Below, piece by piece: positions 3,333 through 39,980 of a DNA stretch of 64,000 nucleotides; the stretch's first letter is position 1, and each line of letters opens with the position of its first letter. The stretch lies in the NCBI GenBank assembly GCA_029782335.1, contig JAKOVA010000182.1, forward strand, positions 27,221-91,220. The letters are read 5' to 3'. A program made the position numbers and the translations under genes. The stretch is from Actinomycetes bacterium. GTDB taxonomy: Bacteria > Actinomycetota > Acidimicrobiia > Acidimicrobiales > Microtrichaceae. The notes beneath the pieces were generated by a model. That model searched no databases. It was not told where the DNA came from and saw nothing but the letters and a program-made list of their open reading frames with translations.

Positions 3333-3953
3333 TCAGCGACAGTGCCCGTCGGCGTAGCGGTTGAGCTCGCCCATCGCGCTCAGCAGGCCGTCGGAGTTCA
3401 GGGAGATCAGCCCGCGCGGCGAGTTGATCGTTGCCGGGTCGTAGCCAACCGCCCGGGCATCGTCGGCAATCGCATCCGCCGAGCGGTCGAGCTGCGCCGC
3501 TGCCTCCGGGAGCTCGTCGCGGACGCCGGTGGCGGTTCGGTGGAGATAGCGGGTGATGACATCGACCGCTCGACGGGCCTCGTCGTGGGTGCCGGGCGCC
3601 GGAAAGTCGCTGAGCCAGCCGGCAAGCTCAATGAGCCGACATCCGTCGGTACCGGCCGCGTTGATCTGGGAGCTCGCCCCGTCGACTGCCTCGTCGAAGC
3701 TCGCAGGCTTGGCGAGCGTGGTCGTCGGACCGGTCGACGGCCGAGCTGTCGGCGACGACGTCGACACGTCTGTCGGGGAGCGGTCGGTGGCCGTCGGGGC
3801 TCGGTCGTTGCTGCACGCAGCGAGTGCCAGGAACCCGACCGTCGCGAGCGCCCAGCGGTGCCGCCGTCGCTGGTGTCGATCGCGGCCGTCCACGACGCCA
3901 AGCCTAGATGTGGTCCATGTGCCGCTTCGCAGCGCCGGAGAGGTTCGACGCAA
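3333..3953 (-). CDS. putative lipoprotein, unknown function
   Basis: Lipobox-like signal RWALATVGFLALAACS followed by a Thr/Pro/Ser-rich linker. Start is uncertain: ATG at 3953 or GTG at 3893. Confidence 0.6.
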   Translation of the reverse strand: MRRTSPALRSGTWTTSRLGVVDGRDRHQRRRHRWALATVGFLALAACSNDRAPTATDRSPTDVSTSSPTARPSTGPTTTLAKPASFDEAVDGASSQINAAGTDGCRLIELAGWLSDFPAPGTHDEARRAVDVITRYLHRTATGVRDELPEAAAQLDRSADAIADDARAVGYDPATINSPRGLISLNSDGLLSAMGELNRYADGHCR

Positions 3954-3980: not shown

Positions 3981-3997
3981 TCTGACGGGTCGTCAGA
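3981..3997. promoter_or_regulatory. candidate operator, perfect palindrome TCTGACG-GGT-CGTCAGA
   Basis: 7+7 bp perfect inverted repeat in the divergent region between the lipoprotein gene (-) and ipdA (+). The same half-sites recur at 22947..22965 and 30722..30738. Confidence 0.45.
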
Positions 3998-4061
3998 AAC
4001 CGGCGGACCCGGGTCCGAAACCGATCGACGGGGAGCGACGTTGGCCATCCCAGACAAGCGC

Positions 4062-4913
4062 ATGACCGAGAGCGAGGTAATCGGCGAACTCCGCAGCGGC
4101 ATGACCATCGGCATCGGTGGTTGGGGCTCGCGACGCAAGCCGATGTCGCTGATCCGCGAGCTGCTGCGCTCCGACCTCGAGGACCTCACGATCGTCAGCT
4201 ACGGCGGACCCGACGTCGGGCTGCTGAGTCGTGCGGGGAAGGTTCGCAAAGTGGTGAGCGGGTTCGTCTCGTTGGACTCGATCGCCCTCGAACCCCACTA
4301 TCGGATCGCACGCCAGTCGGGTGCGATCGAGGCGGCCGAATGGGATGAGGGCATGTTGTTGCTCGGCCTGCAAGCCGCCGCGTGGCGGGTGCCGTTCCTG
4401 CCGACCCGTGCCGGCCTCGGCACCGACCTGCCTACCCTCATGCCCGAGCTGCGCACCGTGACCTCGCCGTACCCGAGCCCCGACGGGGTGGCCGACGAAC
4501 CGTTGCTGGCCGTCCCGGCGCTGCACCTCGACGCCGCGCTGATCCACATGCACCGGGCCGATCAAGGCGGCAACGGCCAGTTCCTCAACAGCGACCTGTA
4601 CATGGACGACCTCATGGCGATGGGGGCGGACCGCTGCTACATGAGCTGCGAACAGATCGTTGCGACCGAGGACTTCCCCAAGTTCGGCTCGCATCACACC
4701 CAGCGCATCTCCCGGCTCATGACCGCAGGTGTCGTGGAGCGACGCGGTGGTGCGCACTTCACCGAGTGTCCGCCCGACTACGGCCGCGACGAGGCGTTCC
4801 AGAAGGAGTACGCCGCGACCGCGAAGTCCGACGAGGCGTGGGACGCCTTCCGCGCCAAGTACCTCGACGTTCCCGAAGCGGACTACCAGCGACTCGTGGG
4901 GATCGGATCATGA
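4062..4913 (+). CDS. ipdA: CoA-transferase family subunit A, IpdA-like (steroid ring C/D, COCHEA-CoA hydrolase alpha)
   Basis: ORF 3276..4913 trimmed to ATG at 4062 (MTESEVIGELRSGMTIGIGGWGSRRKPMS...). Sequence is closely reminiscent of mycobacterial IpdA. Its stop overlaps the ipdB start (ATGA at 4910-4913). Confidence 0.8.
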   Translation: MTESEVIGELRSGMTIGIGGWGSRRKPMSLIRELLRSDLEDLTIVSYGGPDVGLLSRAGKVRKVVSGFVSLDSIALEPHYRIARQSGAIEAAEWDEGMLLLGLQAAAWRVPFLPTRAGLGTDLPTLMPELRTVTSPYPSPDGVADEPLLAVPALHLDAALIHMHRADQGGNGQFLNSDLYMDDLMAMGADRCYMSCEQIVATEDFPKFGSHHTQRISRLMTAGVVERRGGAHFTECPPDYGRDEAFQKEYAATAKSDEAWDAFRAKYLDVPEADYQRLVGIGS

Positions 4914-5698
4914 GCAACGAAGCAGTCCTCGAAGACGGTGCCCCGACCCGGGCCGAGATCTGTTGCGTGGCGGTCGCCGAGTGCTTCCGGGGGGACGGCG
5001 AGATCCTCGCCAACCCGATCGGCACCATTCCGATGATCGGTGGACGGCTGGCGCGTGAGAGTTTCGAGCCGCATCTCGTGATGACCGACGGGTTCGCGGG
5101 GTTCGCTGCCAATCCACTTCCCCCCGGAGCGGATCCGGCCGACGCCGTTCTGGAAGCCTGGAACCCGTATCCGCAGATGTTCCAGGTGCTGTGGAACGGA
5201 CGGCGTCACGTGATGATGGGCGGGAGCCAGTTCGACCGGTTCGGCAACCAGAACTTCGTCTGCATCGGCGACTGGCGTCAGCCGCGCTTCCAGCTCCTCG
5301 GGTTCCGCGGAGCCCCGGGCAACACGATCAACCACACCACCAGCTACTGGGTGCCAGCGCACAACGCCAAGACCTTCGTCGAGCGCGTCGATGTCGTGAG
5401 CGGGGTCGGCAACGACCGTGCTGCGGCGCTGCCCGCCGAAGGTGGCCGCTTCCACGAACTGCGTCGCGTGGTCACCAACCTGGCGGTCCTCGACTTCGAG
5501 ACGCCCGATCGCTCGATGCGTCTGCGGTCGTTGCATCCCGGCGTCACCGTCGACGAGGTGGTCGCCGCGACCGGGTTCGAGCTGACGATCCCCGACTCGG
5601 TCCCCGAGTCGCGCCTGCCCACCGACGAGGAACTCCGCCTCATTCGTGAGGTCATCGACCCTGCCGGGCTGCGTTACACCGAAGTGCCGCGGGACTGA
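4910..5698 (+). CDS. ipdB: CoA-transferase family subunit B, IpdB-like
   Basis: ORF 4382..5698 trimmed to ATG at 4910 (MSNEAVLEDGAPTRAEICCVAVAECFRGDGEILANPIG...). Coupled to ipdA and followed by an NMO-family gene, as in the mycobacterial cluster. Confidence 0.8.
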   Translation: MSNEAVLEDGAPTRAEICCVAVAECFRGDGEILANPIGTIPMIGGRLARESFEPHLVMTDGFAGFAANPLPPGADPADAVLEAWNPYPQMFQVLWNGRRHVMMGGSQFDRFGNQNFVCIGDWRQPRFQLLGFRGAPGNTINHTTSYWVPAHNAKTFVERVDVVSGVGNDRAAALPAEGGRFHELRRVVTNLAVLDFETPDRSMRLRSLHPGVTVDEVVAATGFELTIPDSVPESRLPTDEELRLIREVIDPAGLRYTEVPRD

Positions 5699-5700
5699 TC

Positions 5701-6792
5701 GTGACGGATCCACTCGACACTCAGGCGACCCGCCTCTTCGGGGTGCGGTTGCCGGTGGTGCAGACGGGAATGGGCTGGGTGTCGGGCGCGACGCTGACGG
5801 CGGCCACCTCGGAGGCGGGCGGTCTGGGAATCCTCGCCTCGGCCACGATGACGATGCCCGAGTTGGCCGCGGCGATCGTGAAGGTCCGTCGGCGCACCAC
5901 GAACCCCTTCGGGGTCAACCTCCTTCCGGCGGTGCCCGACGCGGCGCAGCGTATCGATCTCATCATCAGCGAGGGAGTGCCGGTGGCGTCCTTCGCCGCC
6001 GCCCCCAAGCCCGATCAGGTGGCGCGGCTTCGCGACGCCGGGGTGACGACGATCGTCACCGTTGGCGCGAAGCGCCACGCCGAGAAGGTTGCGGCGATGG
6101 GGGTCTCCGCGGTCATCGCACAGGGAGGAGAGGGCGGCGGTCACACCGGATCGATCGCCACTTCGTTGCTGCTGCCCCAGGTGATCGACGCCGTCGCCGG
6201 CACCGACGTGGTCGTGTTGGGCGCCGGGGGGTTCTTCGACGGCCGCGGGCTTGCCGCAGCGCTCGCCTACGGAGCGGACGGCATCGCGATGGGCACCAGG
6301 TTCCTGCTCACCCGCGAATCGCAGGTGCCCGAGAACACCAAAGCGATCTACCTCGAAACCCCGCCGACCGGCACCGTCGTCACGAGCGCGATCGACGGTG
6401 CACCCCAGCGGGTGATCCGCACCGAGATGATCGACGCTCTCGAGCGCACCCCGACGGCGTTGCGCTTCCCGCGTGCCGCGATGAACGCCCTGCGGTTCCG
6501 CAAGCTGTCGGGCACGTCGTTCTCCGACCTGCTCAAGACGGGTGCAGCGATGCGACGAGATCAGGAACTCACCTTCGCTCAGCTCGCGATGGCTGCGAAC
6601 GCGCCGATGCTGACGAAGGCGGCGATGGTCGACGGCCACCCCGAAGTCGGGATTCTCCCGACTGGCCAGGCGGTCGGCGCGATCGACGAACTCCCGACCG
6701 TCGAGGAACTGCTGTCGTCGATCGAGGCGGATGCCCGCTCGGCGATCGGCAGGCTCTGCGGTGGCCCGAGCTCCGACGGAGGAAGCGACTGA
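5701..6792 (+). CDS. ipdC: nitronate monooxygenase/2-nitropropane dioxygenase-family enoyl reductase, IpdC-like
   Basis: 363-aa ORF with GTG start 3 nt after the ipdB stop. NMO-type N-terminus (LFGVRLPVVQTGMGWVSGATL...GGLGILA). Position matches the gene that follows ipdAB in mycobacteria. Confidence 0.7.
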   Translation: MTDPLDTQATRLFGVRLPVVQTGMGWVSGATLTAATSEAGGLGILASATMTMPELAAAIVKVRRRTTNPFGVNLLPAVPDAAQRIDLIISEGVPVASFAAAPKPDQVARLRDAGVTTIVTVGAKRHAEKVAAMGVSAVIAQGGEGGGHTGSIATSLLLPQVIDAVAGTDVVVLGAGGFFDGRGLAAALAYGADGIAMGTRFLLTRESQVPENTKAIYLETPPTGTVVTSAIDGAPQRVIRTEMIDALERTPTALRFPRAAMNALRFRKLSGTSFSDLLKTGAAMRRDQELTFAQLAMAANAPMLTKAAMVDGHPEVGILPTGQAVGAIDELPTVEELLSSIEADARSAIGRLCGGPSSDGGSD

Positions 6793-7949
6793 TGGATCTG
6801 ACCTGGTCGGAGCGCGAGGAGGCGTTCCGCGCCGAGTGCCGAACCTGGCTCGAAGCGAACGTCCCCCACGGCCTGCCCTCCGGCGACACCCGCGAGGGGT
6901 TCACGCTCCATCTGGAGTGGGAGCGCACCCTGCATGCCGCCGGGTACGCGGCGGTTTCGTGGCCGAAGGCGTACGGCGGCCGCGACGCATCGCTGTGGGA
7001 GTGGCTGATCTTCGAGGAGGAGTACTACCGGGCGGGTGGGCCGCAGCGGGTCACCCAGAACGGCATCTTCCTGCTGGCGCCGACGATCTTCGAGTTCGGC
7101 ACCGACGCCCAACGCGACTACTACCTGCCGCGCATGTCCGCGGCAGAAGACCTGTGGTGCCAGGGGTGGTCGGAACCGAACGCCGGGTCCGACCTTGCCG
7201 GCATCACCTCGCGGGCGGTGCGCGACGAAGCCGCCGGCGGATGGCGGCTGTCCGGCCAGAAGACGTGGACGACCCGCGGTGCCTTCTGCACCCACCTGTT
7301 CGGGCTGTTCCGCTCTGACGGTGACGCGGAGCGGCACCGTGGTCTCACCTACTTCCTCGTGCCCCTCGACGCGGAGGGCGTGACCGTGCGGGGCTTCGGA
7401 CGCCTCGACGGCGACGAGGGTTTCGCCGAGGTGTTCCTCGACGACGTGTTCGTTCCCGACGGAGACGCCGATCCGGCCCGTGGCGGTGTGCTGGGCGGCG
7501 TCGACCAGGGCTGGGGCGTCGCGATGGCGACGACCACCTCCGAGCGTGGCCTCACGCTGCGTTCGCCCGGCCGATTTCGGGCGACGGCGTCGCGGCTCGT
7601 CGAGCTGTACCGCGCCCGCGGCGGCGACGACCCGCTGCTCGCCGACGAAGTCGTTCGCGCTTGGATCGGCGCCGAGGCGTACGACCTCTACACGCTCGGT
7701 GACGTCACGCAGATCACCTCGGGCGGCTCGCCGGGGGCTCGGTCGAGTCTCAACAAGCTGTTCTGGTCCGAGCTCGACATCGCGTTGCACCGCGCCGCGC
7801 TCAACATCCTGGGCCCCGACGCGGAGATCGACGACGACCCGTTCATGAAGGGCTACCAGTTCGCCCTGTCCGGCCCGATCTACGCCGGCACCAACGAGAT
7901 CCAACGCAACATCGTTGCCGAGCGTGTGCTCGGCCTTCCCCGGAAGTGA
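6792..7949 (+). CDS. acyl-CoA dehydrogenase (FadE31-like alpha-type subunit by context)
   Basis: ORF 5646..7949 trimmed to ATG at 6792, overlapping the ipdC stop (TGATG). ACAD motifs present (WCQGWSEPNAGSDLA, GTNEIQRNIVAERVLGLPR). Confidence 0.85.
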   Translation: MDLTWSEREEAFRAECRTWLEANVPHGLPSGDTREGFTLHLEWERTLHAAGYAAVSWPKAYGGRDASLWEWLIFEEEYYRAGGPQRVTQNGIFLLAPTIFEFGTDAQRDYYLPRMSAAEDLWCQGWSEPNAGSDLAGITSRAVRDEAAGGWRLSGQKTWTTRGAFCTHLFGLFRSDGDAERHRGLTYFLVPLDAEGVTVRGFGRLDGDEGFAEVFLDDVFVPDGDADPARGGVLGGVDQGWGVAMATTTSERGLTLRSPGRFRATASRLVELYRARGGDDPLLADEVVRAWIGAEAYDLYTLGDVTQITSGGSPGARSSLNKLFWSELDIALHRAALNILGPDAEIDDDPFMKGYQFALSGPIYAGTNEIQRNIVAERVLGLPRK

Positions 7950-7955
7950 CCTGAG

Positions 7956-8969
7956 ATGCGCTTCGCTTTCAGCGACGACCAACTCGCGTTCGCCGACGCG
8001 GTCCGCGAGTTGCTCACCAACGAGTGCCCCCCCGAGGTGGTCCGTGCCGCGTGGGATTCGCCCGACGGACGGAACCGCCGGCTGTGGACCCAGCTCGCCG
8101 AGATGGGCGTGGTGGGGATGCTGGCGCCCGAGTCGATCGGCGGGCTCGGCCTTTCCGATATCGACCTGGTGCGCATCCTCGCGGAGGCGGGGTTCGCCGG
8201 GCTGGCTGAGCCGCTCGCTGACGTGGCGGCCGTCGTGGTGCCGGCGTTGCGTGATCACGGCGCCGCCGGACTCAGCGACGAGTTGTTGGCCCGAGTGGTC
8301 GCGGGCGAAGCCACCGTCGGGCTCGGCCTGCGATCCGACGGGTCGACGCTGCACGCCGAAAGCGCCGACGCGTTGTTGCTGGAGGCCGAGGACGGCCTGC
8401 ACCTGGTCGCCACGACCGATGTCGAGCTGTCACCGCTCAACACCGTCGACGGGGCGCGACGGCTGTCACGGGTGGTGTGGAGCCCCTCGGAGGAGACGCT
8501 CCTTGCCGGTGGTCCCTCCGCGGCGGTCGAGGCCCGCGATCGCGCTGCGGTCGCTGCCGCCGCCGAACTGTGTGGTCTCGCGGATCGCATGTTGGCGATC
8601 GCCGTCGAGTACGTGACGGAGCGCAAGCAGTTCGGGGTGCCGATCGGCTCGTTCCAAGCGGTCAAGCACCACCTCGCCAACGCAACGCTCGCTCTCGAGT
8701 TCGCGAAGCCGCTGGTGTGGCGTGCCGCCTACTCGCGCACCATGGGCGACCCGGACGCCTCGCTGCACGCGTCCATGGCCAAGGCGCAGGCGTCCGATGC
8801 AGCGGAGGTCGTCGGCGTCGCGGCGCTGCAGTGCCACGGTGCGATCGGCTACACGGTCGAATGCGACCTGCACGTGTTCCTGAAGCGCGCCTGGGCGTTG
8901 CAACGACGAGCCGGTGACGCGGCGGCGCATCGGCGTCGAGTGGCCGCGGCGGTGCTCCACGCCAACTGA
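7956..8969 (+). CDS. acyl-CoA dehydrogenase family protein (FadE32/33-like partner subunit by context)
   Basis: 337-aa ORF starting 6 nt after the preceding ACAD. ACAD-like C-terminal half (FGVPIGSFQAVKHHLA). Shorter than a canonical ACAD, as expected for heteromeric steroid ACAD partners. Confidence 0.8.
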   Translation: MRFAFSDDQLAFADAVRELLTNECPPEVVRAAWDSPDGRNRRLWTQLAEMGVVGMLAPESIGGLGLSDIDLVRILAEAGFAGLAEPLADVAAVVVPALRDHGAAGLSDELLARVVAGEATVGLGLRSDGSTLHAESADALLLEAEDGLHLVATTDVELSPLNTVDGARRLSRVVWSPSEETLLAGGPSAAVEARDRAAVAAAAELCGLADRMLAIAVEYVTERKQFGVPIGSFQAVKHHLANATLALEFAKPLVWRAAYSRTMGDPDASLHASMAKAQASDAAEVVGVAALQCHGAIGYTVECDLHVFLKRAWALQRRAGDAAAHRRRVAAAVLHAN

Positions 8970-9039
8970 CCCGTCGGCTGGGGCCACCGCCGGCGGCGGG
9001 CGTTTCGCAGCCGGATCAGCGGCTACGTAGCCTGCTGAG

Positions 9040-10188
9040 ATGCCCGAGGCCTACATCATCGACACCGTCCGCACTCCCGTTGGCAGACGGGGAGGAGGGC
9101 TCTCCCAAGTCCATCCCGCCGATCTCGGAGCCCACACGCTCGCGGCCCTGATCGACCGCACGGGCATCGACCCCGGTGCCGTCGACGACGTCGTGATGGG
9201 ATGCGTCGACACGATCGGCCCCCAGGCCGGCGACATCGCCCGCACCGCGTGGCTCGCGGCGGGGCTGCCCGAACACGTGCCCGGCACGACGATCGACCGC
9301 CAGTGCGGATCCTCGCAACAGGCAGTGCACTTTGCGGCCCAGGGTGTCATGTCGGGCACCCAGGATCTCGTGGTGGCCTGCGGGTCACAGAGCATGTCGC
9401 AGATCCCGATCAGCTCCGCGATGCTCGTCGGTGAGCAGTTCGGATTCACCGATCCGTTCTCGGGATCCGAGGGATGGCAGAAGCGCTACGGCGATCAGGA
9501 GATCAGCCAGTTCCGGTCGGCCGAGATGATCGCCGAGAAGTGGGGGATCACCCGCGAGGACATGGAAGCGTTCGCGATCGAATCGCACGAGCGTGCGATC
9601 CGCGCTCGTGCCGAGGGACGCTTCGACCGTGAGATCGTCGAGTTGGCGGGCTTGCAGGCCGACGAGGGCCCCCGCGAACCGAACGTCGAGAAGATCCGCT
9701 CGCTCCAGCCGCTCGTCGAGGGCGGACGGGTGACCGCTGCGGTCGCATCGCAGATCTCCGACGCGTCTGCGGCGATGTTGATCGCCTCCGAACAGGCGGT
9801 CGCCGATCACGGACTGCGCCCTCGTGCCCGCATCCATCATCTGTCCGTGCGCGCGGATGACCCCGTCTACATGCTGACGGCGCCAATCGCGGCGACCCGT
9901 CACGCGCTCGCCAAGGCGGGGATGACCCTCGAGGACATCGACCTCGTCGAGATCAACGAGGCGTTCGCTTCGGTGGTGCTGGCGTGGCAGAGGGACCTCG
10001 ACGCCGACATGACCAAGGTGAACGTGAACGGTGGGGCCATCGCGCTCGGCCACCCCCTCGGCGCGACCGGCGTGCGTCTCATGACGACGTTGCTCAACGA
10101 ACTGGAGCGCACCGGTGGGCGTTACGGGCTCCAGACCATGTGTGAGGGCGGCGGTCAGGCGAACGTCACCATCATCGAGCGGCTGTAG
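9040..10188 (+). CDS. acetyl-CoA C-acyltransferase (thiolase), FadA6-like by context
   Basis: 382-aa ORF. Thiolase motifs present (TIDRQCGSSQQAV, NVNGGAIALGHPLGATG, CEGGGQA). Confidence 0.9.
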   Translation: MPEAYIIDTVRTPVGRRGGGLSQVHPADLGAHTLAALIDRTGIDPGAVDDVVMGCVDTIGPQAGDIARTAWLAAGLPEHVPGTTIDRQCGSSQQAVHFAAQGVMSGTQDLVVACGSQSMSQIPISSAMLVGEQFGFTDPFSGSEGWQKRYGDQEISQFRSAEMIAEKWGITREDMEAFAIESHERAIRARAEGRFDREIVELAGLQADEGPREPNVEKIRSLQPLVEGGRVTAAVASQISDASAAMLIASEQAVADHGLRPRARIHHLSVRADDPVYMLTAPIAATRHALAKAGMTLEDIDLVEINEAFASVVLAWQRDLDADMTKVNVNGGAIALGHPLGATGVRLMTTLLNELERTGGRYGLQTMCEGGGQANVTIIERL

Positions 10189-17374: not shown

Positions 17375-17388
17375 GAGAACGTGTTCTA
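17375..17388. promoter_or_regulatory. KstR-type operator-like box GAGAACGTGTTCTA
   Basis: Matches 7 of the 8 specified positions of the KstR consensus TnnAACnnGTTnnA, with perfect AGAAC/GTTCT arms. Located 13 nt upstream of the ACAD start at 17401, in a divergent intergenic region. Confidence 0.5.
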
Positions 17389-22073: not shown

Positions 22074-22904
22074 TTAGGTCGGCAGTCCCTCGTAGGTGTC
22101 GAGGACGCGAAGCACATCGTCGCGTCCCGCCGAGGGGAGCCGCACCACGCACTCGGTCACCCCGATCGTGGCGAAGTGCTCCAGCTTCTCAGGTGTCGGG
22201 ATCGTGCCGAACGGAATGATCTCGACCGCTGACGGATCTCTGCCCGCAGCGGCGACCGCCTCGCGGAGCTGCGGGATGGCGGTCGCGAGACCTGATCCAC
22301 CGATCGGGATCCAACCCGCGCCGTACTCGGCGATGTGGGAGAACAGCTTCGGGCCGGCGCCGCCGCCGATGACGACGGGAACCGGCCGGTCGGGCTTCGG
22401 CCACGACCAACTGGGCCCGAAGTCCACGAAGTCGCCGTGGAACTCGGCAACCTCGTCGTTCCACAGGGCCTGCATCGCCAGAACGTGCTCTCGGCACTGC
22501 GCGCGACGGGTCGTGTAGTCGACCCCGTGGTGGGCCATTTCGTCGGCGTTCCACCCGAAGCCGACGCCGGCCCAAAAGCGGCCCGCCGAGAGATTCTGGA
22601 GGGTCGCGATCGCCTTCGCGGTCACGATCGGCTCCCGCTGGGCGGGCAGCAGGATGCCGGTACCGAGCCGGATCGTTGAGGTACGCGCTGCGGCCGCGGC
22701 GAGGACGACGAGCGGGTCGAGGGTGCGGCGGTACTCCTCGGGGAGCGTTGCCTCGCCCGTCGGTGGTGGGGTGAGGCGGCTCGTCGGGATGTGGGTGTGT
22801 TCGGGGATCCACAGCGAGGAGAAGCCGCGGGCTTCCGCCTCGATCGCCAACTCGACGACATCCATCGATCGGTCCGTCGCGAACATGGTCACGCCGATAC
22901 GCAT
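22074..22904 (-). CDS. LLM-class (luciferase-like) F420-dependent oxidoreductase
   Basis: 276-aa ORF. MRIGVTMFATDRSMDVVELAIEAEARGFSSLWIPEHTHIP is typical of the F420-dependent LLM subfamily. Confidence 0.85.
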   Translation of the reverse strand: MRIGVTMFATDRSMDVVELAIEAEARGFSSLWIPEHTHIPTSRLTPPPTGEATLPEEYRRTLDPLVVLAAAAARTSTIRLGTGILLPAQREPIVTAKAIATLQNLSAGRFWAGVGFGWNADEMAHHGVDYTTRRAQCREHVLAMQALWNDEVAEFHGDFVDFGPSWSWPKPDRPVPVVIGGGAGPKLFSHIAEYGAGWIPIGGSGLATAIPQLREAVAAAGRDPSAVEIIPFGTIPTPEKLEHFATIGVTECVVRLPSAGRDDVLRVLDTYEGLPT

Positions 22905-22946: not shown

Positions 22947-22965
22947 ATCTGACGAGTCGTCAGAT
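22947..22965. promoter_or_regulatory. candidate operator, perfect palindrome ATCTGACG-AGT-CGTCAGAT
   Basis: 8+8 bp perfect inverted repeat between the divergent LLM oxidoreductase (-) and SDR (+) genes. Same half-site as at 3981 and 30722. Confidence 0.45.
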
Positions 22966-22984: not shown

Positions 22985-23887
22985 ATGATTTGTGACGGAC
23001 GTGTGGTGATCGTGACGGGCGCCGGCCGTGGGATCGGCCGGGCTCATGCGTTGGAGTTCGCCCGACAGGGTGCGAAGGTCGTCGTCAACGACCTCGGTGT
23101 CGCCCCCGACGGCTCCGATCCGACCGACACGCCGGCCCAACAGGTGGTCGATGAGATCATCGCGGCCGGCGGCGAAGCCGTGGTTTCCCAGCACGACGTC
23201 GCCGATTGGGACACCGCCGGTGAGATGGTCCAGCTCGCGATCGACACGTTCGGCACCCTCGATGTCGTCGTGAACAACGCCGGCATCGTGCGTGACCGGA
23301 TGTTCGTCAACAGTGAGCAGTCCGAGTGGGAGGCCGTCCTGCGGGTGCATGTGATGGGCCACGCCGCGCCCGCTCGTCACGCGGCGAGCTACTGGCGTGG
23401 CAAGGCGAAGGCGGGCGAGGTTGTCGAAGGTCGGATCATCAACACCTCGTCGGGAGCGGGGCTGATGGGCTCCATCGCGCAGGCCGCCTACTCGGCGGCA
23501 AAAGGTGCGATCGCGAGCCTGACCCTGGTGCAGGCAGCGGAGCTCGGCAGGATCGGCGTGACCGCGAACGCGCTCGCCCCCGCAGCGCGGACGCGCATGA
23601 CCGAAGAGGCCTTCGCCGAGATGATGGCGAAACCCGAGGCGGGTGCCTTCGACGCGATGGCGCCCGAGAACGTCTCGCCGCTCGTGGTGTGGCTCGGTTC
23701 CACCCAGTCGGCGGAGGTCACGGGGCGGGTCTTCGAGGTCGAGGGCGGAATCATCGGGATCGCCGAGGGCTACCGTCACGGCCCCCGGGTCGACAAGGGC
23801 GCTCGCTGGGAGCCCGATGAGGTGGGCGCCGTCGTCGCCGACCTCCTACGCGAGGCGACCACGCCGACGCCGGTCTACGGCACCTGA
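22985..23887 (+). CDS. SDR family oxidoreductase (300 aa)
   Basis: [29 protein letters not shown] Rossmann motif. YSAAKGA catalytic motif. Confidence 0.85.
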
Positions 23888-23985
23888 GCAGGGTTCGCCG
23901 AGGTGGGTCGGGAGGCCGCGGCGGTGTAGCGTCCGCGGTGACGCGCGTACCCGCCGAGGACGCGACCGACCACAGGGACGAGCCG

Positions 23986-24387
23986 ATGCGCCGCCGAATG
24001 TTTCTCGCCAAGTTGCACCGCGCAACGGTGACCCAAGCCGACCTGCATTACGAGGGGAGCGTCACGATCGACGCCGAGCTCCTCGATGCGAGCGGCATCC
24101 TCCCCCATGAGGAGGTGCACATCTGGGACGTGACGTCGGGGGCGCGGCTCACCACCTACGCGCTGGAGGGCCCCCGCGGATCGGGGGTCATCTGCATCAA
24201 CGGTGCCGCCGCGCACCTGGTGTCACCGGGCGATCTGGTCATCATCGCGACCTTCGGCGAGATGGACGACGCCGAGGCGCGCTCGCACGTGCCGACGGTC
24301 GTGTTCGTCGACGCCGAGAATCGGATCACCGAGATCAGCGCTGAGCGGCCGGGTCCCCAGTTGCCGCGGCACCTCTCGGCGAACTGA
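23986..24387 (+). CDS. panD: aspartate 1-decarboxylase
   Basis: [29 protein letters not shown] matches the PanD N-terminus, including the G-S self-cleavage site. ORF 23938..24387 trimmed to ATG at 23986. Confidence 0.9.
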
Positions 24388-24533: not shown

Positions 24534-25739
24534 CTACGAAAGCCGCTCGATGATCATCGCCATGCCCTGGCCGCCGCCGACGCACATGGACTCCATGCCG
24601 AAGGTCTTGTCGGATTCTTGGAGGTTGTGAATCAGGGTCGTCATGATTCGGGCGCCGGTCATACCGAAGGGATGGCCGATGGCGATCGCGCCACCGCGGG
24701 TGTTGAGCTTGTCCCAACTGATCCCGAGGTGCTTGGCCGAGGGGATGACCTGCGCGGCGAACGCCTCGTTGATCTCCACGAGGTCGATGTCGTCGATGGT
24801 CATCTTCGCTCGAGCCATCGCCTGACGGCAGGCCTCGATCGGTCCGAGACCCATGATTTCGGGGTTGAGGCCCGACACGCCGGAGGCGACGATGCGGGCA
24901 AGCGGCGTGAGGCCGAGCTCCTTCGCCTTGGTGTCGCTCATGACGACGACCGCCGCGGCGCCGTCGTTGAGGGGACAGGCGTTACCGGCGGTGACCGAAC
25001 CCTCGGGCTTGAAGGCCGGCTTCAGATTGGCGAGACCCTCGGCGGTGGTGCCGGGGCGGATGCCGTCGTCGGTCGACACGACGGTGCCGTCGGGAAGGGT
25101 CACCGGGGTGATCTCCATCTCCCAGAACCCGTTCTCGAGCGACTCGGTCGCCCGCTGTTGGGACTGAGCGGCGTACTCGTCTTGTTCCTGACGGCTCACC
25201 TGCTCGAACTCGGCGACGTTCTCGGCGGTCTGACCCATGGCGATGTACACGTCGGGGAGGCCGGCCGGTGGCGTCCATGCGCCACCCTCGCCGGCGCCAC
25301 GACTCGCGGTGCGGGCCATCGCATCGGCGAAGCGCTCGTTGGTGGGCCCGTCGTCGGCCATCCCGTTGATGAATCGCGAGACGGTCTCAACGCCGGCCGA
25401 CACGAAGATGTCGCCTTCTCCGGCGCGGATGGCGTGTGCCGCCATGCGGATGGTCTGCAACGAGGAGGAGCAGTAGCGGTTCACCGTGACGCCGGGGACC
25501 TCAGGCATTCCCGAGAGGACGGCCACAACTCGGCCGATGTTCACCCCGGCCTCACCGGCAGGCTGGCCGCAACCCATCATGAGGTCCTCGACGAGATTGC
25601 GGTCGAGGGCCGGGATCTTCGCGAGCGCGGCGTCGACGATCTGTGCAGCAAGGTCGTCAGGGCGGATCGTCGTGAGCGAACCCTTCATCGCGCGGCCAAT
25701 CGGGCTGCGGGCGGTCGAGACGATGACGGCTTCGGGCAT
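24534..25739 (-). CDS. acetyl-CoA C-acyltransferase (thiolase)
   Basis: 401-aa ORF. Motifs present: [34 protein letters not shown]. Confidence 0.9.
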
Positions 25740-25846
25740 GACGGTCCCCTCCGGGTGGCGTTCGTGAACCGGCCGACGCTACCGATCGGTGGCGAACCTC
25801 GGCCAGTCAATCGCTCCTGGCGCACACTCCCGATCTCCTCCCACCG

Positions 25847-25872
25847 CCCCGGATTTCCCCGCGCCCCGCCCC
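25847..25872 (-). other. G-quadruplex-type tract on the minus strand (GGGG-C-GGGG-CGC-GGGG-AAATCC-GGGG)
   Basis: The plus strand reads CCCC GGATTT CCCC GCG CCCC G CCCC. It is part of three CCCCGCCCCG-type direct repeats (25844-25890), about 110-150 nt upstream of the thiolase start. Confidence 0.35.
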
Positions 25873-25892
25873 GGATCTCACCCCGCCCCGTC

Positions 25893-26098
25893 CCGAACTT
25901 GCGGACGTTTCCGTCGTTGGGGGTCGGTTTTGTACGCAGGTTCGGCGGGTAGGTGCCCGCTCGTTCCGAACTTGCGGACGTTTCCGTCGTTGGGGGTCGG
26001 TTTTGTACGCAGGTTGCCGGGTGGGTGCCCGCTCGTTCCGAACTTGCGGACGTTTCCGTCGTTGGCGGTCGGTTTTGTACGCAGGTTCGGCGGGGTTG
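25893..26098. repeat. 72-73 bp tandem repeat x3 with conserved internal hairpins (REP/MIRU-like)
   Basis: Units start at 25893, 25966 and 26038. The 50-nt core CCGAACTTGCGGACGTTTCCGTCGTTGGGGGTCGGTTTTGTACGCAGGTT is identical in units 1-2 and has one change in unit 3. The array lies in the gap between the MaoC and thiolase genes. Confidence 0.9.
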
Positions 26099-28673: not shown

Positions 28674-29456
28674 TCAGGGGTGCTGGGAGGAAACGGCGAC
28701 GACCTCGCCGGTCATGTAGGTCGAGTACTCCGACGCCAGGAAGACCATGACGGTCGCGATCTCCCACGGTTCCGCAGCGCGCCCGAAGGCCTCCCTCGCC
28801 TCGAGCTCCTCCAGCAGTCCGTCGGGGGTCACCTTTGCGAGGAACGGGTGCATCGCGAGGCTCGGCGACACCGCGTTGACCCGCACGTTGTGCTTCGCCG
28901 CCTCCATCGCAGTGCAGCGCGTCAACGCCATCACGCCCGCCTTGGCCGCGGCGTAGTGGGCTTGGAGTTCCTGGGCTCGCCAGCCCAGCACCGAGGCGTT
29001 GTTGACCACCGCTCCCGTGCCCCGCTCGTACATGTGGGGGAGTACGGCCCGCAGGCAACGGAACGTCCCGGTGAGCGTGATGTCGAGCACCTTCGACCAC
29101 TGCTCGTCGGTCATGTCGACGACGGCCGCGTTGCCGCCGAGGCCCGCGTTGTTCATCCAGACGTCGATGTGGCCGAGTTGCTCGATGGCGCTTCGCACCA
29201 GGCCCTGCACCTGATCCTCGTTCGTCACGTCGCACAGGACGGTGCCGGGCCGCGTGCCGGTGGCGTCCGCGATCGCGTCGGCGGCCTCGGAGAGTCGACG
29301 CTCGTGCAGGTCGCTGATGACCACGCTGGCCCCCTCTTGGACGCAACGCTTCGCGAGCGAAAAGCCGATACCGGTTCCGGCAGCGGCGGTGACCACGGCG
29401 GTCTTGCCCGCCAACAGGTCGCGCGGTGCGGGTTCAGCGGGGACAGGTGCGGCCAT
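28674..29456 (-). CDS. SDR family oxidoreductase
   Basis: VVTAAAGTGIGFS Rossmann motif. YAAAKAGV catalytic motif. Confidence 0.85.
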   Translation of the reverse strand: MAAPVPAEPAPRDLLAGKTAVVTAAAGTGIGFSLAKRCVQEGASVVISDLHERRLSEAADAIADATGTRPGTVLCDVTNEDQVQGLVRSAIEQLGHIDVWMNNAGLGGNAAVVDMTDEQWSKVLDITLTGTFRCLRAVLPHMYERGTGAVVNNASVLGWRAQELQAHYAAAKAGVMALTRCTAMEAAKHNVRVNAVSPSLAMHPFLAKVTPDGLLEELEAREAFGRAAEPWEIATVMVFLASEYSTYMTGEVVAVSSQHP

Positions 29457-29495
29457 GATCGAACTCCTCGTGTCGGTCGCGTGGTCGGAGAGGGC

Positions 29496-30683
29496 TCAAC
29501 GGGGCTCTTTGGGCAGGCCGAGCGCCCGCTCGCCGATCACGTTGCGTTGGATCTGGTCGGAGCCGCCGTAGATGGTGTCGGAGCGGGTGAAGAAGAACAG
29601 CCGGTGTTCCTCGCCGAGCGCCTCGTGGGTCCCGTAGTCGCCGGCGGTGACGAGGGCGTCGGCGCCCAGGACATCCATCGCCAGCTCACCCATGTCCTGG
29701 TGGAGGTTCGCCCAGTAGAGCTTGCCGATCATCGCCTCCGGCACGAGCTCCGCGTGTTCGTCGACCGACAGCGTGCGCAGCGCGTTGAGTCGCATGATGC
29801 GGAGCCGAATGCACAGAGCGGCGATCCGTTGACGCATCACCGGGTCGGCGGACACCCCCCGAACCCGAGCATGGGCGATGATCCCGTTGAGTTCGCGCTC
29901 GAAGGCCATCTGCTGGCCGAGGGTCAGCACGCCACGCTCGAACGCGAGGGTGCCCATGGCGACCTTCCAGCCGTCGCCCGGCGCTCCGACGATATGGTCC
30001 GCCGGGGTCCGCGCCTCGTCGAAGAAGACCTCGTTGAACTCCGCGGTTCCCGTGATCTGGTGAATCGGGCGCACCTCGATGCCGGGACTGTCCATTCGGA
30101 TCAGGAGGTAGGAGAGCCCGCGGTGACGCTCGGAACCCGGTTCGGTGCGGCACACGACGAAGCACCAGTCGGACCACTGCGCGAGCGAGGTCCAGACCTT
30201 CTGACCCGAGATCACCCACTCGTCGCCGTCGAGGCGAGCGGTGGTCCGCACGTTGGCAAGGTCGGATCCGGCGTTCGGCTCCGAGTAACCCTGACACCAG
30301 TACTCGGTCCCCGAGACGATGCCGGGGAGGAAGCGGGCCTTCTGTTCCTCGGTCGCGAAGTGAATGAGCGTTGGCCCGAGAAGCCCCTCGCCGACGAGGC
30401 CCGCTCGACCTGGCCCTCCGGCCCGCGCGTACTCCTCGTGAAAGATCACCTCTTGGCTGAGCGACAGGCCTCGCCCGCCGTAGCGGGTGGGCCAGCCAAC
30501 ACAGGTCCAGCCCGATGCGGCGAGGTGACGCTCCCACTCCATCCGCTCCGGGACGAACGAGTGCTCGTCGCCGGGGCCGCCACGGCTCCGGAGCTGGGCG
30601 AACTCTCCGGTGAGGTTCGACGACATCCAGTCACGGATCTCGGTCCGGAATGCCCGGTCCTCAGCGCTGTCACCCGAATCCAC
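29496..30683 (-). CDS. acyl-CoA dehydrogenase
   Basis: ORF 29496..30950 trimmed to GTG at 30683 (alternative GTG at 30692), with GGAGAG upstream. Motifs WCQGYSEPNAGSDLA and GGSDQIQRNVIGERALGLPK. Paralogous to the ACAD at 6792. Confidence 0.85.
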   Translation of the reverse strand: MDSGDSAEDRAFRTEIRDWMSSNLTGEFAQLRSRGGPGDEHSFVPERMEWERHLAASGWTCVGWPTRYGGRGLSLSQEVIFHEEYARAGGPGRAGLVGEGLLGPTLIHFATEEQKARFLPGIVSGTEYWCQGYSEPNAGSDLANVRTTARLDGDEWVISGQKVWTSLAQWSDWCFVVCRTEPGSERHRGLSYLLIRMDSPGIEVRPIHQITGTAEFNEVFFDEARTPADHIVGAPGDGWKVAMGTLAFERGVLTLGQQMAFERELNGIIAHARVRGVSADPVMRQRIAALCIRLRIMRLNALRTLSVDEHAELVPEAMIGKLYWANLHQDMGELAMDVLGADALVTAGDYGTHEALGEEHRLFFFTRSDTIYGGSDQIQRNVIGERALGLPKEPR

Positions 30684-30721
30684 CGCGTTCACCTCTCTCC
30701 GGCAGCCGGCGCCCGACGATA

Positions 30722-30738
30722 TCTGACGACCCGTCAGA
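30722..30738. promoter_or_regulatory. candidate operator, perfect palindrome TCTGACG-ACC-CGTCAGA
   Basis: 7+7 bp perfect inverted repeat between the divergent ACAD (-) and esterase (+) genes. This is the third copy of the same half-sites. Confidence 0.45.
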
Positions 30739-30772: not shown

Positions 30773-31789
30773 GTGACCTCGCCGTTCGGCCTGGGATCCC
30801 AGGACAACCTCCCGCCGCCACCGCCGCCACCGCCGCCACCGCGTCGCCGTGGTCCGCTCTCCGGGGCGCTGATCGCCGCGGCGGTCGTTGGCGTCCTCCT
30901 GCTCGTTGTCGTGGCGGTCGGCGTCGTGCGAAACGCCCGCACCGAAACACCCCGTCGGCCAGTGGCGACGAGTACGACGACCGAGCCGCCGCGACGGAGC
31001 GCGGCAGGCGCTGACGTGACGTCGTGCCCCGCCTACGAGCAGAGCTTTCCGTTGTCGCCGCTGGGTTGTACGCAACTCAGCCCGCCCAACATCCGTGACG
31101 GCGAACGCCTACCGCTGGTCGTGCTGTTGCACGGATTCAACACCTCGCCGTCGGAGGAGATCGGCGCCGGGTCCTGGGACGCAGCGGTGGTGCGACGCCG
31201 CTTCGTACTGGCAGCACCGGAGAGCAACGCCGCCTCGTGGAACGCCGGTGGATGCTGTGGGCTCTCGAAGTCGATGCAGATCGACGATGTCGCTCGGATC
31301 CGGCACCTGATCGAGGAACTGTCGCGGCGGCCACAGATCGACCCCTCACGGATCTATCTGGTGGGCGACTCCAACGGCGGCATGATGACCTACCGGTTCC
31401 TCTGCCGCGACGCTCACCGTCTCGCCGGTGCCGCGTCGATCGAAGGGACACGGGTCAGCGGTTGCACCCCGAATGCGGCGATCCCGTTTCTCCATGTCGC
31501 CGGGTTGGCGGACATGACGGTTCCCTTCGAGGGGGGTCAATCCCTCGCAGCGTGGGTGTTGGGGGTGACCTTCGCTCCGGTGGAACGGTCGATGGAACAG
31601 TTCACCGTTGCGCTCGACTGTGCGGAGCCGTCGGAATCGAAGGCGGGCAACGTGACGACGACGCGGTGGGTCTGCCGTGACGGAGCGCCGGTCCAACTCG
31701 TCACCCTCGCCGGGTGGGGCCATGCCTGGCCGACACCGAAGTGGTATCCCGCCACCGAGCAGGTGCTCGACTTCTTCGGAATCACATGA
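30773..31789 (+). CDS. membrane-anchored PHB-depolymerase/LpqC-type esterase family protein
   Basis: GTG at 30773 is the assumed start. Poly-Pro tract, then a TM helix. Family-type motifs LPLVVLLHG, WNAGGCCG and GDSNGGMMTY (nucleophile elbow). Confidence 0.8.
   Translation: MTSPFGLGSQDNLPPPPPPPPPPRRRGPLSGALIAAAVVGVLLLVVVAVGVVRNARTETPRRPVATSTTTEPPRRSAAGADVTSCPAYEQSFPLSPLGCTQLSPPNIRDGERLPLVVLLHGFNTSPSEEIGAGSWDAAVVRRRFVLAAPESNAASWNAGGCCGLSKSMQIDDVARIRHLIEELSRRPQIDPSRIYLVGDSNGGMMTYRFLCRDAHRLAGAASIEGTRVSGCTPNAAIPFLHVAGLADMTVPFEGGQSLAAWVLGVTFAPVERSMEQFTVALDCAEPSESKAGNVTTTRWVCRDGAPVQLVTLAGWGHAWPTPKWYPATEQVLDFFGIT
30812..30838 (+). repeat. 9-bp simple repeat (CCGCCGCCA)x3 encoding a run of about ten prolines
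   Basis: Read directly. Lies inside the esterase CDS, N-terminal to the TM segment. Confidence 0.9.
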
Positions 31790-32820
31790 AGCGCCGGTCG
31801 TCGTGGTCGGGGTCGGAGACGCCTGAACCGTCCGCCGTGCTCCGCTCATTCGAGCGGCCGCGTCGGCGGTGGCTGCGATGGCTGGTCGGAATCGTGGTGA
31901 CGGTGGTTGTCCTGATCGCGGTGATCGGCGGCGGGGTCGTCTGGTACAGCCGCACCCACCAGGGCATCGAGTTGCCCGCAGATGGCGGACCGCTGCCGAC
32001 GTCCGCTCCGGTGACACGTCCAAATCGACCGGGTGTGACGGTGTCGATCATGACGGTGCAGCAGGGTGCGAATCAGCGGCGTGCGTCGATTCTTGCTCCG
32101 ACTGACCTTCGCCCGGGTGAGCGCCTTCCCGTGGTGGTGCTCTTGCACGGCCACTCGGCGAACTCCGGGGTGATCGTGTCGCGGGGGGCGTGGGCTCCGG
32201 CGATCGCGGCCTACCGCTTTGTGGTCGTTGCCCCGGACGGGGTGGCGCAGAGCTGGAACGCGGGCGGGTGCTGTCGACTCGCGACCACGCTGGGCATCGA
32301 CGACGACGCCTTCTTGGACGTCGTGGTTCGTGACGTGAAACGTCGCGACTTTGTGGATCCGAGACGGGTCTTCATGGTCGGCGAGTCCAACGGCGGGATG
32401 ATGGCGTATCGCTTCGCCTGCCGGCACGGAGACGAAATCGCAGCGATGGTGTCGGTCGAGGGAACGCGGCTCGACAACTGTCCGCCGAAGCGGCCGATCT
32501 CGATCCTGCACATCCATGGCACCGACGATCGGGTGGTGCCGTACGCCGGCGGGGAGAGCGCCGCCGGCGAACTGCTCAGCTCAACCACGTTCCCCGCTGT
32601 GGAGGCGTCGATGGGACGGATCGCAGGGCAGCTCGGGTGCGCGGCGGATCCGGCGCTCGACACAGCGATCTCCACCGTGACCGTGCGACGGTGGAGCGGA
32701 TGTGGCCAGGGAGCCCATGTCGAGCTCGACACGATCGCGGGCCTCGGCCACGTGTGGCCGCGGACCGGCTCGTACGACGCCACCGAGCGCATCGTTGCCT
32801 TCTTCGGCCTCAACGGCTGA
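31786..32820 (+). CDS. membrane-anchored PHB-depolymerase/LpqC-type esterase family protein (paralogue)
   Basis: ATG at 31786 overlaps the upstream stop (ATGA). TM helix. Motifs LPVVVLLHG, WNAGGCCR, GESNGGMMAY. Confidence 0.8.
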   Translation: MKRRSSWSGSETPEPSAVLRSFERPRRRWLRWLVGIVVTVVVLIAVIGGGVVWYSRTHQGIELPADGGPLPTSAPVTRPNRPGVTVSIMTVQQGANQRRASILAPTDLRPGERLPVVVLLHGHSANSGVIVSRGAWAPAIAAYRFVVVAPDGVAQSWNAGGCCRLATTLGIDDDAFLDVVVRDVKRRDFVDPRRVFMVGESNGGMMAYRFACRHGDEIAAMVSVEGTRLDNCPPKRPISILHIHGTDDRVVPYAGGESAAGELLSSTTFPAVEASMGRIAGQLGCAADPALDTAISTVTVRRWSGCGQGAHVELDTIAGLGHVWPRTGSYDATERIVAFFGLNG

Positions 32821-39356: not shown

Positions 39357-39980
39357 ATGTCCGGCGAACCCGGTACCGAAGAATCCGAACTTGACACGCG
39401 CGAGCGACTCGTCCGTTCCGCGGTGGAAGTGTTCCTCGAGAAGGGCTACGGCGGTGCCCGCGTGCAGGACATCGCGCGGAAGGCCGGCTACACCGCCGGC
39501 GCGTTGTACGTCCATTTCCCGAGCCGCACCGCGTTGCTCGGCGAAGCGATCGTGATGGAGGGCGAGAGCATCATCGATTCGCTCATCCAGCACTTCTCCG
39601 TCACCCCCGGCAACGGGTCGGTGTCGCGGGCGCTCGCCGAGTACGCAACGGCCGAGAGCGGGTCGCTCGACGTGTTGTTGCTCGAGGCGCTCGCGCTCGC
39701 GTCGCGGGACAAGGAGTGCCGAGACATGCTCGCAGCGTCCTTGGACCGGTTGGAGGCGAGCATCGGCGCGCAGATCGACCTGGCGATGCAGGACTCGCTG
39801 ATCGATCCGTCCCTCGACGCCGAGACGCTCGGAACCTTCTTCTCATCATGGATCCTCGGCACGATGGTTCATCGGGCCGTGGGACTGCGCCGCACCGACA
39901 CGGAGTCGATGTTCGAACTCTGCGAGCGCATCACGGGGTCGATGCTCCCGGGCTGGACCGCCCCTGAGATCAACCCGTAG
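39357..39980 (+). CDS. TetR/AcrR family transcriptional regulator
   Basis: HTH region RERLVRSAVEVFLEKGYGGARVQDIARKAGYTAGALYVHFPSR. SD GAGGAG upstream. Confidence 0.85.
   Translation: MSGEPGTEESELDTRERLVRSAVEVFLEKGYGGARVQDIARKAGYTAGALYVHFPSRTALLGEAIVMEGESIIDSLIQHFSVTPGNGSVSRALAEYATAESGSLDVLLLEALALASRDKECRDMLAASLDRLEASIGAQIDLAMQDSLIDPSLDAETLGTFFSSWILGTMVHRAVGLRRTDTESMFELCERITGSMLPGWTAPEINP

Follow-up and report, generated by a model that had tools for sequence, protein, structure and literature searches.

Which regulator controls the ipdABC operon in the 64-kb stretch of actinobacterial DNA analysed here (the window; 68.5% G+C)? In mycobacteria, the ipdABC genes belong to the targets of KstR2, together with echA20, fadE30-33, fadA6, and fadD3, and the box of this regulator reads AnCAAGnnCTTGnT (Kendall et al., 2010; PMC3068626). 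The window contains no copy of the strict box and none of the core CAAGnnCTTG. A sequence-only reading had instead drawn attention to a palindrome that matches no KstR2 box, with identical half-sites, TCTGACG and CGTCAGA, set 3 nt apart and present in three copies, none elsewhere in the window, at a chance expectation far below one per 64 kb. These claims were borne out. The pattern TCTGACGNNNCGTCAGA gave three exact matches in the window, no further site with up to two mismatches was found there, and 0 of 100 dinucleotide-preserving shuffles of the window contained any match. Allowing three mismatches added three sites, with coordinates within called genes, against 7.25 expected by chance. 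As copies with up to two mismatches are missing and those with three occur at chance level, sites in the window are either perfect or absent. The three sites are:

Operator 1, 3981-3997, TCTGACGGGTCGTCAGA / ATCTGACGGGTCGTCAGAA, exact match flanked by the lipoprotein gene and the ipdA operon
Operator 2, 22948-22964, TCTGACGAGTCGTCAGA / ATCTGACGAGTCGTCAGAT, exact match between the LLM oxidoreductase and SDR genes
Operator 3, 30722-30738, TCTGACGACCCGTCAGA / ATCTGACGACCCGTCAGAC, exact match between the acyl-CoA dehydrogenase (ACAD) and esterase genes

All three sites lie in divergent promoter regions, 20-87 nt from the start codons, a range slightly wider than the 20-80 nt first given. The base directly 5' of the core is A in each case (ATCTGACG). 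A perfect 7-N3-7 palindrome in three divergent promoters has the form of a short inverted-repeat operator at the promoter of regulated genes. The centres of the two 7-bp half-sites are 10 bp apart, which places them on the same face of the helix and fits a TetR-fold dimer touching two successive major grooves. A promoter scan found no sigma-70-type promoter around site 1. The tet operator, tetO, is bound by a TetR-fold dimer and, like the motif, consists of two inverted half-sites of ~7 bp that start with TCT and end with AGA. The likeness is purely geometric. The centre measures 1 bp in tetO and 3 bp here, the half-sites are unrelated beyond TCT/AGA, and the biology differs.

The genes around the sites were annotated with Pfam and NCBIfam, and the result agrees with the gene pairs lipoprotein/ipdA, LLM/SDR, and ACAD/esterase that had been named from the sequence:

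3336..3893, reverse strand, lipoprotein of ~186 aa with a signal peptide and lipobox in its translation; start 3893, 87 nt from site 1 on its left
4041..10188, forward strand, putative ipd operon of closely packed or overlapping genes
4041-4913, forward strand, ipdA, gene 1 of the putative operon; TTG start 4041, 43 nt from site 1 on its right
4910-5698, forward strand, ipdB, gene 2
5701-6792, forward strand, ipdC/NMO, gene 3
6789-7949, forward strand, ACAD, gene 4
7956-8969, forward strand, ACAD, gene 5
9040-10188, forward strand, thiolase, gene 6
22074..22904, reverse strand, F420-dependent LLM-class oxidoreductase of the TIGR03619 type (Pfam Bac_luciferase, 1.5e-50); start 22904, 43 nt from site 2 on its left
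22985-23887, forward strand, SDR of the PRK07791 type, 300 aa; ATG 22985, 20 nt from site 2 on its right
23938-24387, forward strand, panD (aspartate decarboxylase)
28674-29456, reverse strand, SDR downstream of the pimC-like ACAD
29496-30692, reverse strand, pimC-like ACAD; start 30692, 29 nt from site 3 on its left
30773-31789, forward strand, PHB-depolymerase-like esterase; GTG 30773, 34 nt from site 3 on its right
31714-32820, forward strand, alpha/beta hydrolase

The LLM oxidoreductase scored 240.6 bits with NCBIfam TIGR03619 (cut-off 166.9). The panD gene may be co-transcribed with the SDR gene before it, and this gene order recurs on the Logan contigs L001 and L002 (L-numbers denote loci fetched from other genomes and metagenomes for comparison). 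The lipoprotein gave no Pfam match. Its homologues adjoin ipdA in L128 (3278-3835), L129, L131 (1341-1904), L132, L144 (1007-1567), and L150 (3321-3869). In this conserved protein, a lipobox and a Thr-rich linker are combined with a conserved C-terminal domain that contains two Cys. It may serve the pathway in substrate binding or uptake and is a possible member of the regulon; it is not a DNA-binding protein and was rejected as the regulator. The esterase at site 3 has an N-terminal poly-proline run (ccgccgccaccgccgcc..., encoded at 30805-30850), probably a linker after a segment that acts as signal or anchor. Ahead of the thiolase gene 24534-25739, the gap contains a 72-nt tandem repeat (25889-26094; 2.8 copies, 94% matches) and a 22-nt repeat (25844-25895).

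A scan of other genomes for promoter enrichment and an inspection of orthologous promoters had both been proposed as checks on the palindrome, and both spoke in its favour. An exact-match scan of reference genomes, one per GTDB species, returned at least 120 loci; the matches listed came mostly from Streptomyces, Kitasatospora, Actinomadura, Actinoallomurus, and MAGs of Acidimicrobiia/Microthrixaceae. Among these matches, at loci with at least 64% G+C, a confident gene start lay within 130 nt of 84 of 101 sites, 37 of the 84 had a gene start on both sides, and 5 of the 101 sites fell inside ORFs. At the listed low-GC loci, such a start was nearby at 2 of 20 sites; these sites look like chance hits and provide an internal control.

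The first genes adjoining the listed sites (n = 129) were LLM (17), SDR (10), ACAD (10), AMP-binding acyl-CoA ligases (6), Amidohydro_2 (6), ECH (5), CoA-transferase III (3), NMO (2), and ChsH2-OB (2). Outside the window, LLM (16) and SDR (9) were the most frequent neighbours among the matches listed, and the neighbour families elsewhere are those found at the three window sites. The flanking base beyond the searched core, which the search left free, was A or T in 86% of cases (175 distinct sites, from genomes with ~70% G+C), and this preference extends the operator to W-TCTGACG-N3-CGTCAGA-W. A literature search for the half-sites and the N3 forms found no paper with the motif. Several Streptomyces LLM promoters carry paired sites ~60-70 nt apart (L013 3282/3342, L024 4002/4064, L081 7547/7607, and L108 7215/7285), and a pair 22 nt apart precedes an isochorismatase-TetR operon in L218 (9264/9286). 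Such double operators suggest that each divergent promoter has its own site or that binding is cooperative.

For the promoter of ipdA, we collected 80 metagenomic loci with 65-82% protein identity, of which 78 had usable upstream sequence. The motif, with up to two mismatches, was located 18-109 nt upstream of ipdA in 36 of these 78 loci (16 perfect, 14 with one mismatch, and 6 with two), while the remaining 42 had at least four mismatches; the distribution is thus bimodal. A site anywhere in the locus was found in 53 of the 80. Orthologues of the site-3 ACAD gave a similar picture, with a perfect site at the same position in L027, L102, and L105 (77%, 62%, and 59% identity, respectively). The esterase partner is also retained in L027, a Microthrixaceae MAG locus that is the nearest named relative of the window among the loci fetched and shares 77% nucleotide identity with the stretch 28674..30692, over 2 kb. 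We conclude that the three palindromes are very probably functional operator sites. The motif regulon is conserved across Actinomycetota (among them Acidimicrobiia, Streptomycetaceae, Actinomadura, and Mycobacteriales-type MAGs) and is old and widespread.

A candidate for the regulator emerged from the ipdA loci, a subset of which has a strongly conserved TetR gene next to the echA20-ipdA operon. The N-terminal region of the protein reads ...RAVDGRVPGRRGLATRQ-LLDC...YRDLKVTDITRAAGTSPATFYQYF..., its recognition segment is GTSPATFYQYF, and precomputed Pfam assignments give the architecture TetR_N + TetR_C_38. The family comprises more than 5000 homologues (E <=1e-10) and occurs in Mycobacteriales/Frankiales MAGs, Actinomadura, Spirillospora, Streptomyces, and Acidimicrobiales MAGs, a distribution that agrees with that of the motif. 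The closest solved structure is an unrelated TetR (E = 4e-7), and neither KstR2 nor KstR chains were among the PDB matches at E <=0.01. NCBIfam has no named model for the protein, and a literature search for PF19352 / TetR_C_38 gave no matches.

The motif recurs at the promoter of this candidate gene. In six Mycobacteriales-type loci (L157, L158, L169, L195, L205, and L206), a copy with 0-1 mismatch separates echA20-ipdABC from the TetR gene or an SDR-TetR operon, and in the first four of them it lies in the divergent region shared by the echA20-ipdA operon and TetR. In the Mycobacteriales MAG locus L205, a one-mismatch motif separates echA20-ipdA-ipdB-ipdC from a divergent SDR-TetR operon; the TetR start carries another site, and 5 kb off two divergent ACAD genes flank a perfect one. 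In the Acidimicrobiales MAG locus L217, a two-mismatch motif occupies the 28-bp gap ahead of an LLM-isochorismatase-TetR operon; L218 has two tandem sites ahead of its isochorismatase-TetR operon and three others within 10 kb. A motif with 0-2 mismatches thus stands at the promoter of the TetR gene or its operon in L157, L169, L195, L205, L217, and L218. A degenerate copy overlaps the TetR start codon in L043, L204, and L203. The ATG is embedded in AACTGACGGTATGCCAGAA in the Actinomadura loci L043 and L204, which have six other sites within 9 kb, ahead of CoA-ligase, amidohydrolase, and CoA-transferase genes. In the Streptomyces loci L203 and L208-L216 it is embedded in GCTGACGGCATGACAGG, and the site there has four mismatches with one half-site intact. 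The shared form of this degenerate operator in Streptomyces and Actinomadura is CTGACGGyATGmCAG (L203 9985-10005; L204, L043), and a start codon inside the operator points to a leaderless or near-leaderless, autoregulated transcript. The form annotated by NCBI is shorter (211 aa), its start lying 4 codons further downstream. The suggestion of TetR-like geometry made from the sequence gains backing from a candidate of TetR_N + TetR_C_38 architecture with the motif at its own promoter.

The same Streptomyces loci connect the family to a named gene. In L203 and L208-L216, the TetR gene adjoins a glyoxalase-like gene, an AfsK-like kinase gene with PQQ repeats, a small ORF, and an AfsR-like SARP gene, the order in L203 being afsR-like / afsS-like / AfsK-like kinase / glyoxalase / TetR. 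We take this neighbourhood to correspond to the gene order SCO4421-SCO4426, which would place the TetR at SCO4421, and presume that SAV3818 of S. avermitilis may be its orthologue. Both features of the SCO4421 group, the TetR_N + TetR_C_38 architecture and the Streptomyces afsR-afsS-afsK-kbpA neighbourhood, are present in these loci. The order in L203 fits the description of SCO4421 as a TetR 'located close to afsK (SCO4423)' that is induced during sporulation and whose deletion had no phenotype (Salerno et al., 2013; PMC3878966). By synteny, rather than by sequence comparison, the Streptomyces coelicolor member of the candidate family is SCO4421.

According to Table S1 of a 2026 DAP-seq atlas (bioRxiv 10.64898/2026.06.06.730586), SCO4421 has 60 peaks in S. 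coelicolor; the range is 48-205 among eight other Streptomycetaceae and 19-63 among eight other actinomycetes. So many peaks suit a regulon with many sites, and in-vitro sites that are conserved across actinomycetes are in keeping with the many motif copies per genome. The text of the atlas does not treat SCO4421, and in its accessible text and tables we found neither a motif nor a target list for SCO4421, nor its name among the factors with validated sites (bioRxiv 10.64898/2026.06.06.730586). Two other factors from the atlas, SCO4167 and SCO5170, were set aside as the regulator, as synteny indicates SCO4421. The accessible literature yielded no published operator, ligand, or target set for this protein. 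What is published on SCO4421, which lies next to kbpA/afsK, concerns in the accessible sources its sporulation-specific expression and the phenotype-less deletion (PMC3878966); the link to the motif is one that we infer.

The TetR_C_38 / SCO4421 family probably supplies the regulator of the motif. The strongest competitor is that the sites are genuine lipid-regulon operators bound by another transcription factor, of the TetR, GntR, IclR, or MarR type, with the TetR_C_38 gene merely one of the targets. Co-localisation alone cannot separate target from regulator genes, most sites have no adjoining regulator gene, and the Streptomyces TetR start has only a degenerate site. Among the matches listed, no transcription factor gene was found among the first genes next to 121 perfect genomic sites, so that co-localisation is the exception and not the rule. 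Against this stand three features of the TetR_C_38 family: it is the only transcription factor family found repeatedly with the motif, the association spans several distant lineages with differing local gene orders, and the family's distribution parallels that of the motif. The in-vitro binding repertoire listed for SCO4421 is, moreover, conserved and among the larger ones (bioRxiv 10.64898/2026.06.06.730586, Table S1). We therefore regard another binding factor as unlikely, though it is the one competitor of some weight.

Other candidates were considered and dropped. The only transcription factor of the window, a TetR encoded at 39357-39980, is ScbR/AcrR-like, lacks the motif upstream, and is unrelated to the candidate; no regulator orthologous to Rv3557c was found in the window. 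Of the ORFs that flank the genomic sites, those of 281-297 aa encode an enzyme-like protein and those of 150 aa a membrane protein, and those of ~120 aa are probably spurious antisense reading frames. SRTF1 of Nocardioides simplex is a local regulator that binds a 22-bp palindrome beside its own kstD genes. The conserved motifs of McGuire 2012 comprise only KstR and TAC-N6-GTA, and the latter is unrelated. The window encodes no TetR_C_38 member, and the 3.5 kb upstream of it contain neither a TetR gene nor an additional motif site; the source genome presumably encodes the TetR_C_38 protein.

The palindromes could also act as nucleic-acid hairpins, that is, as an attenuator, a terminator, an RNA stability element, or a REP-like repeat. 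Each site can indeed form a 7-bp stem with a 3-nt loop, with minimum free energies of -11.6 to -15.7 kcal/mol and z-scores of -1.7 to -3.4. From Acidimicrobiia to Streptomyces, however, the stem sequence stays invariant and the loop varies freely, and the commonest variant places CATCAGA across from an intact TCTGACG, which breaks a pair without compensation. Moreover, the sites precede start codons in divergent promoters instead of lying 3' of genes, the region scanned around site 1 shows no T-run behind the site, a comparison of the window with Rfam gave no match, and the A/T preference of the flanks reaches beyond the stem. A hairpin function is thus very improbable. Least credible of all are divergent KstR2 (or KstR) operators, for although ipdA, ipdB, ipdC, the ACAD genes, and the thiolase gene at site 1 match the content of the KstR2 regulon (PMC3068626), AnCAAGnnCTTGnT and TCTGACG have no half-site in common, the window lacks both box and core and just 2 of the 80 ipdA loci contain the core, the candidate TetR matches no KstR2/KstR structure at E <=0.01, and many of the loci that carry the motif, such as those in Streptomyces, have no ipd genes.

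Taken together, the best explanation in our view, with a probability of about 0.7, is that the palindromes are lipid-regulon operators bound by a repressor of the TetR_C_38/SCO4421 group. The proposed system resembles KstR2 (Rv3557c) of Mycobacterium and Rhodococcus in being a TetR-type repressor with short palindromic operators in divergent promoters, and its targets include echA20-ipdAB-ipdC, ACAD, and thiolase genes. With regard to the KstR2 target genes, site 1 adjoins ipdA, ipdB, ipdC, two ACAD genes, and a thiolase gene; the genes next to sites 2 and 3, and next to most of the sites found in other genomes, are different ones. The two systems differ in the operator (7-N3-7 TCTGACG/CGTCAGA vs the 14-bp AnCAAGnnCTTGnT) and in the regulator, as the ligand domain of the candidate is of the TetR_C_38 family and its similarity to KstR2 structures is not detectable. 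The motif regulon is also far larger and extends in Streptomyces to loci without ipd genes. In L157, L158, L205, and L206, an SDR gene is divergent from echA20-ipdABC, as at the Rv3549c/Rv3550 KstR2 site of M. tuberculosis, and the motif in the SDR/echA20 region of L205 is the counterpart of that site. An operator of another type together with an adjacent TetR gene indicates an apparent non-orthologous displacement of the regulator in these loci.

The KstR box is TnnAACnnGTTnnA. At 17375-17388, the window contains gAGAACGTGTTCTA, which differs from this box by one base and ends 13 nt short of the GTG (17401) with which an acyl-CoA dehydrogenase gene begins. The window may therefore carry a second, different type of lipid operator.

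The mechanism that we propose for the TetR_C_38/SCO4421-group repressor is as follows. A homodimeric helix-turn-helix protein would bind W-TCTGACG-N3-CGTCAGA-W and shut off both flanking transcription units at each divergent promoter. The targets would be the ipdABC-ACAD-ACAD-thiolase operon and the lipoprotein gene at site 1, the LLM oxidoreductase and SDR genes at site 2, and the ACAD-SDR unit and the esterase genes at site 3. A dimeric regulator of lipid/steroid genes other than KstR or KstR2, as already supposed in the sequence-only reading, is supported by the conserved sites and the recurrence of the same enzyme families; binding of the motif by the TetR_C_38 protein is what we infer from the shared loci. 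Distances of 20-87 nt to the start codons, and sites overlapping the regulator's own start, favour repression over activation and suggest that the repressor also autoregulates its gene, by precedent in the family. A pathway metabolite held in the ligand domain would release the repressor. As the regulon consists mostly of CoA-thioester enzymes, an acyl-CoA thioester is the most plausible inducer and hence the presumed ligand.

Acyl-CoA-responsive TetR repressors of fatty-acid degradation include FadR/YsiA of Bacillus, FadR of Thermus, and PsrA of Pseudomonas. Like these, the proposed system would use one TetR dimer and palindromic boxes for many beta-oxidation-type genes, with derepression by acyl-CoA to be expected. 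It differs from them in the box sequences and in the family of the C-terminal domain, and F420/LLM oxidoreductases, amidohydrolases, and steroid-ring genes figure prominently in its regulon, as opposed to the classical fadAB/fadE content. Neither the operator nor the assignment of its regulator was found in the searchable literature, and both are novel in this sense.

In the lineage of the window and in some Mycobacteriales-type MAGs, the system would hold the echA20/ipdAB promoter, the place of KstR2 in Mycobacterium and Rhodococcus. We lean towards the wider view that a global, pan-actinobacterial repressor of the TetR_C_38/SCO4421 type governs a regulon of acyl-CoA, F420-oxidoreductase, and steroid-ring genes and has replaced KstR2 at echA20-ipdABC in Acidimicrobiia and some Mycobacteriales-type lineages. 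The HIP/ipdABC module would then not be wired to KstR2 everywhere. A large lipid/steroid-ring regulon would thereby obtain a precise operator and a candidate regulator across classes of Actinomycetota, including the poorly studied Acidimicrobiia, whose Microthrix relatives matter in lipid-rich wastewater. The 19-bp consensus can be used at once for regulon annotation in thousands of genomes. If the assignment is true, SCO4421, an orphan regulator beside afsK, gains a function, an operator, and a target set.
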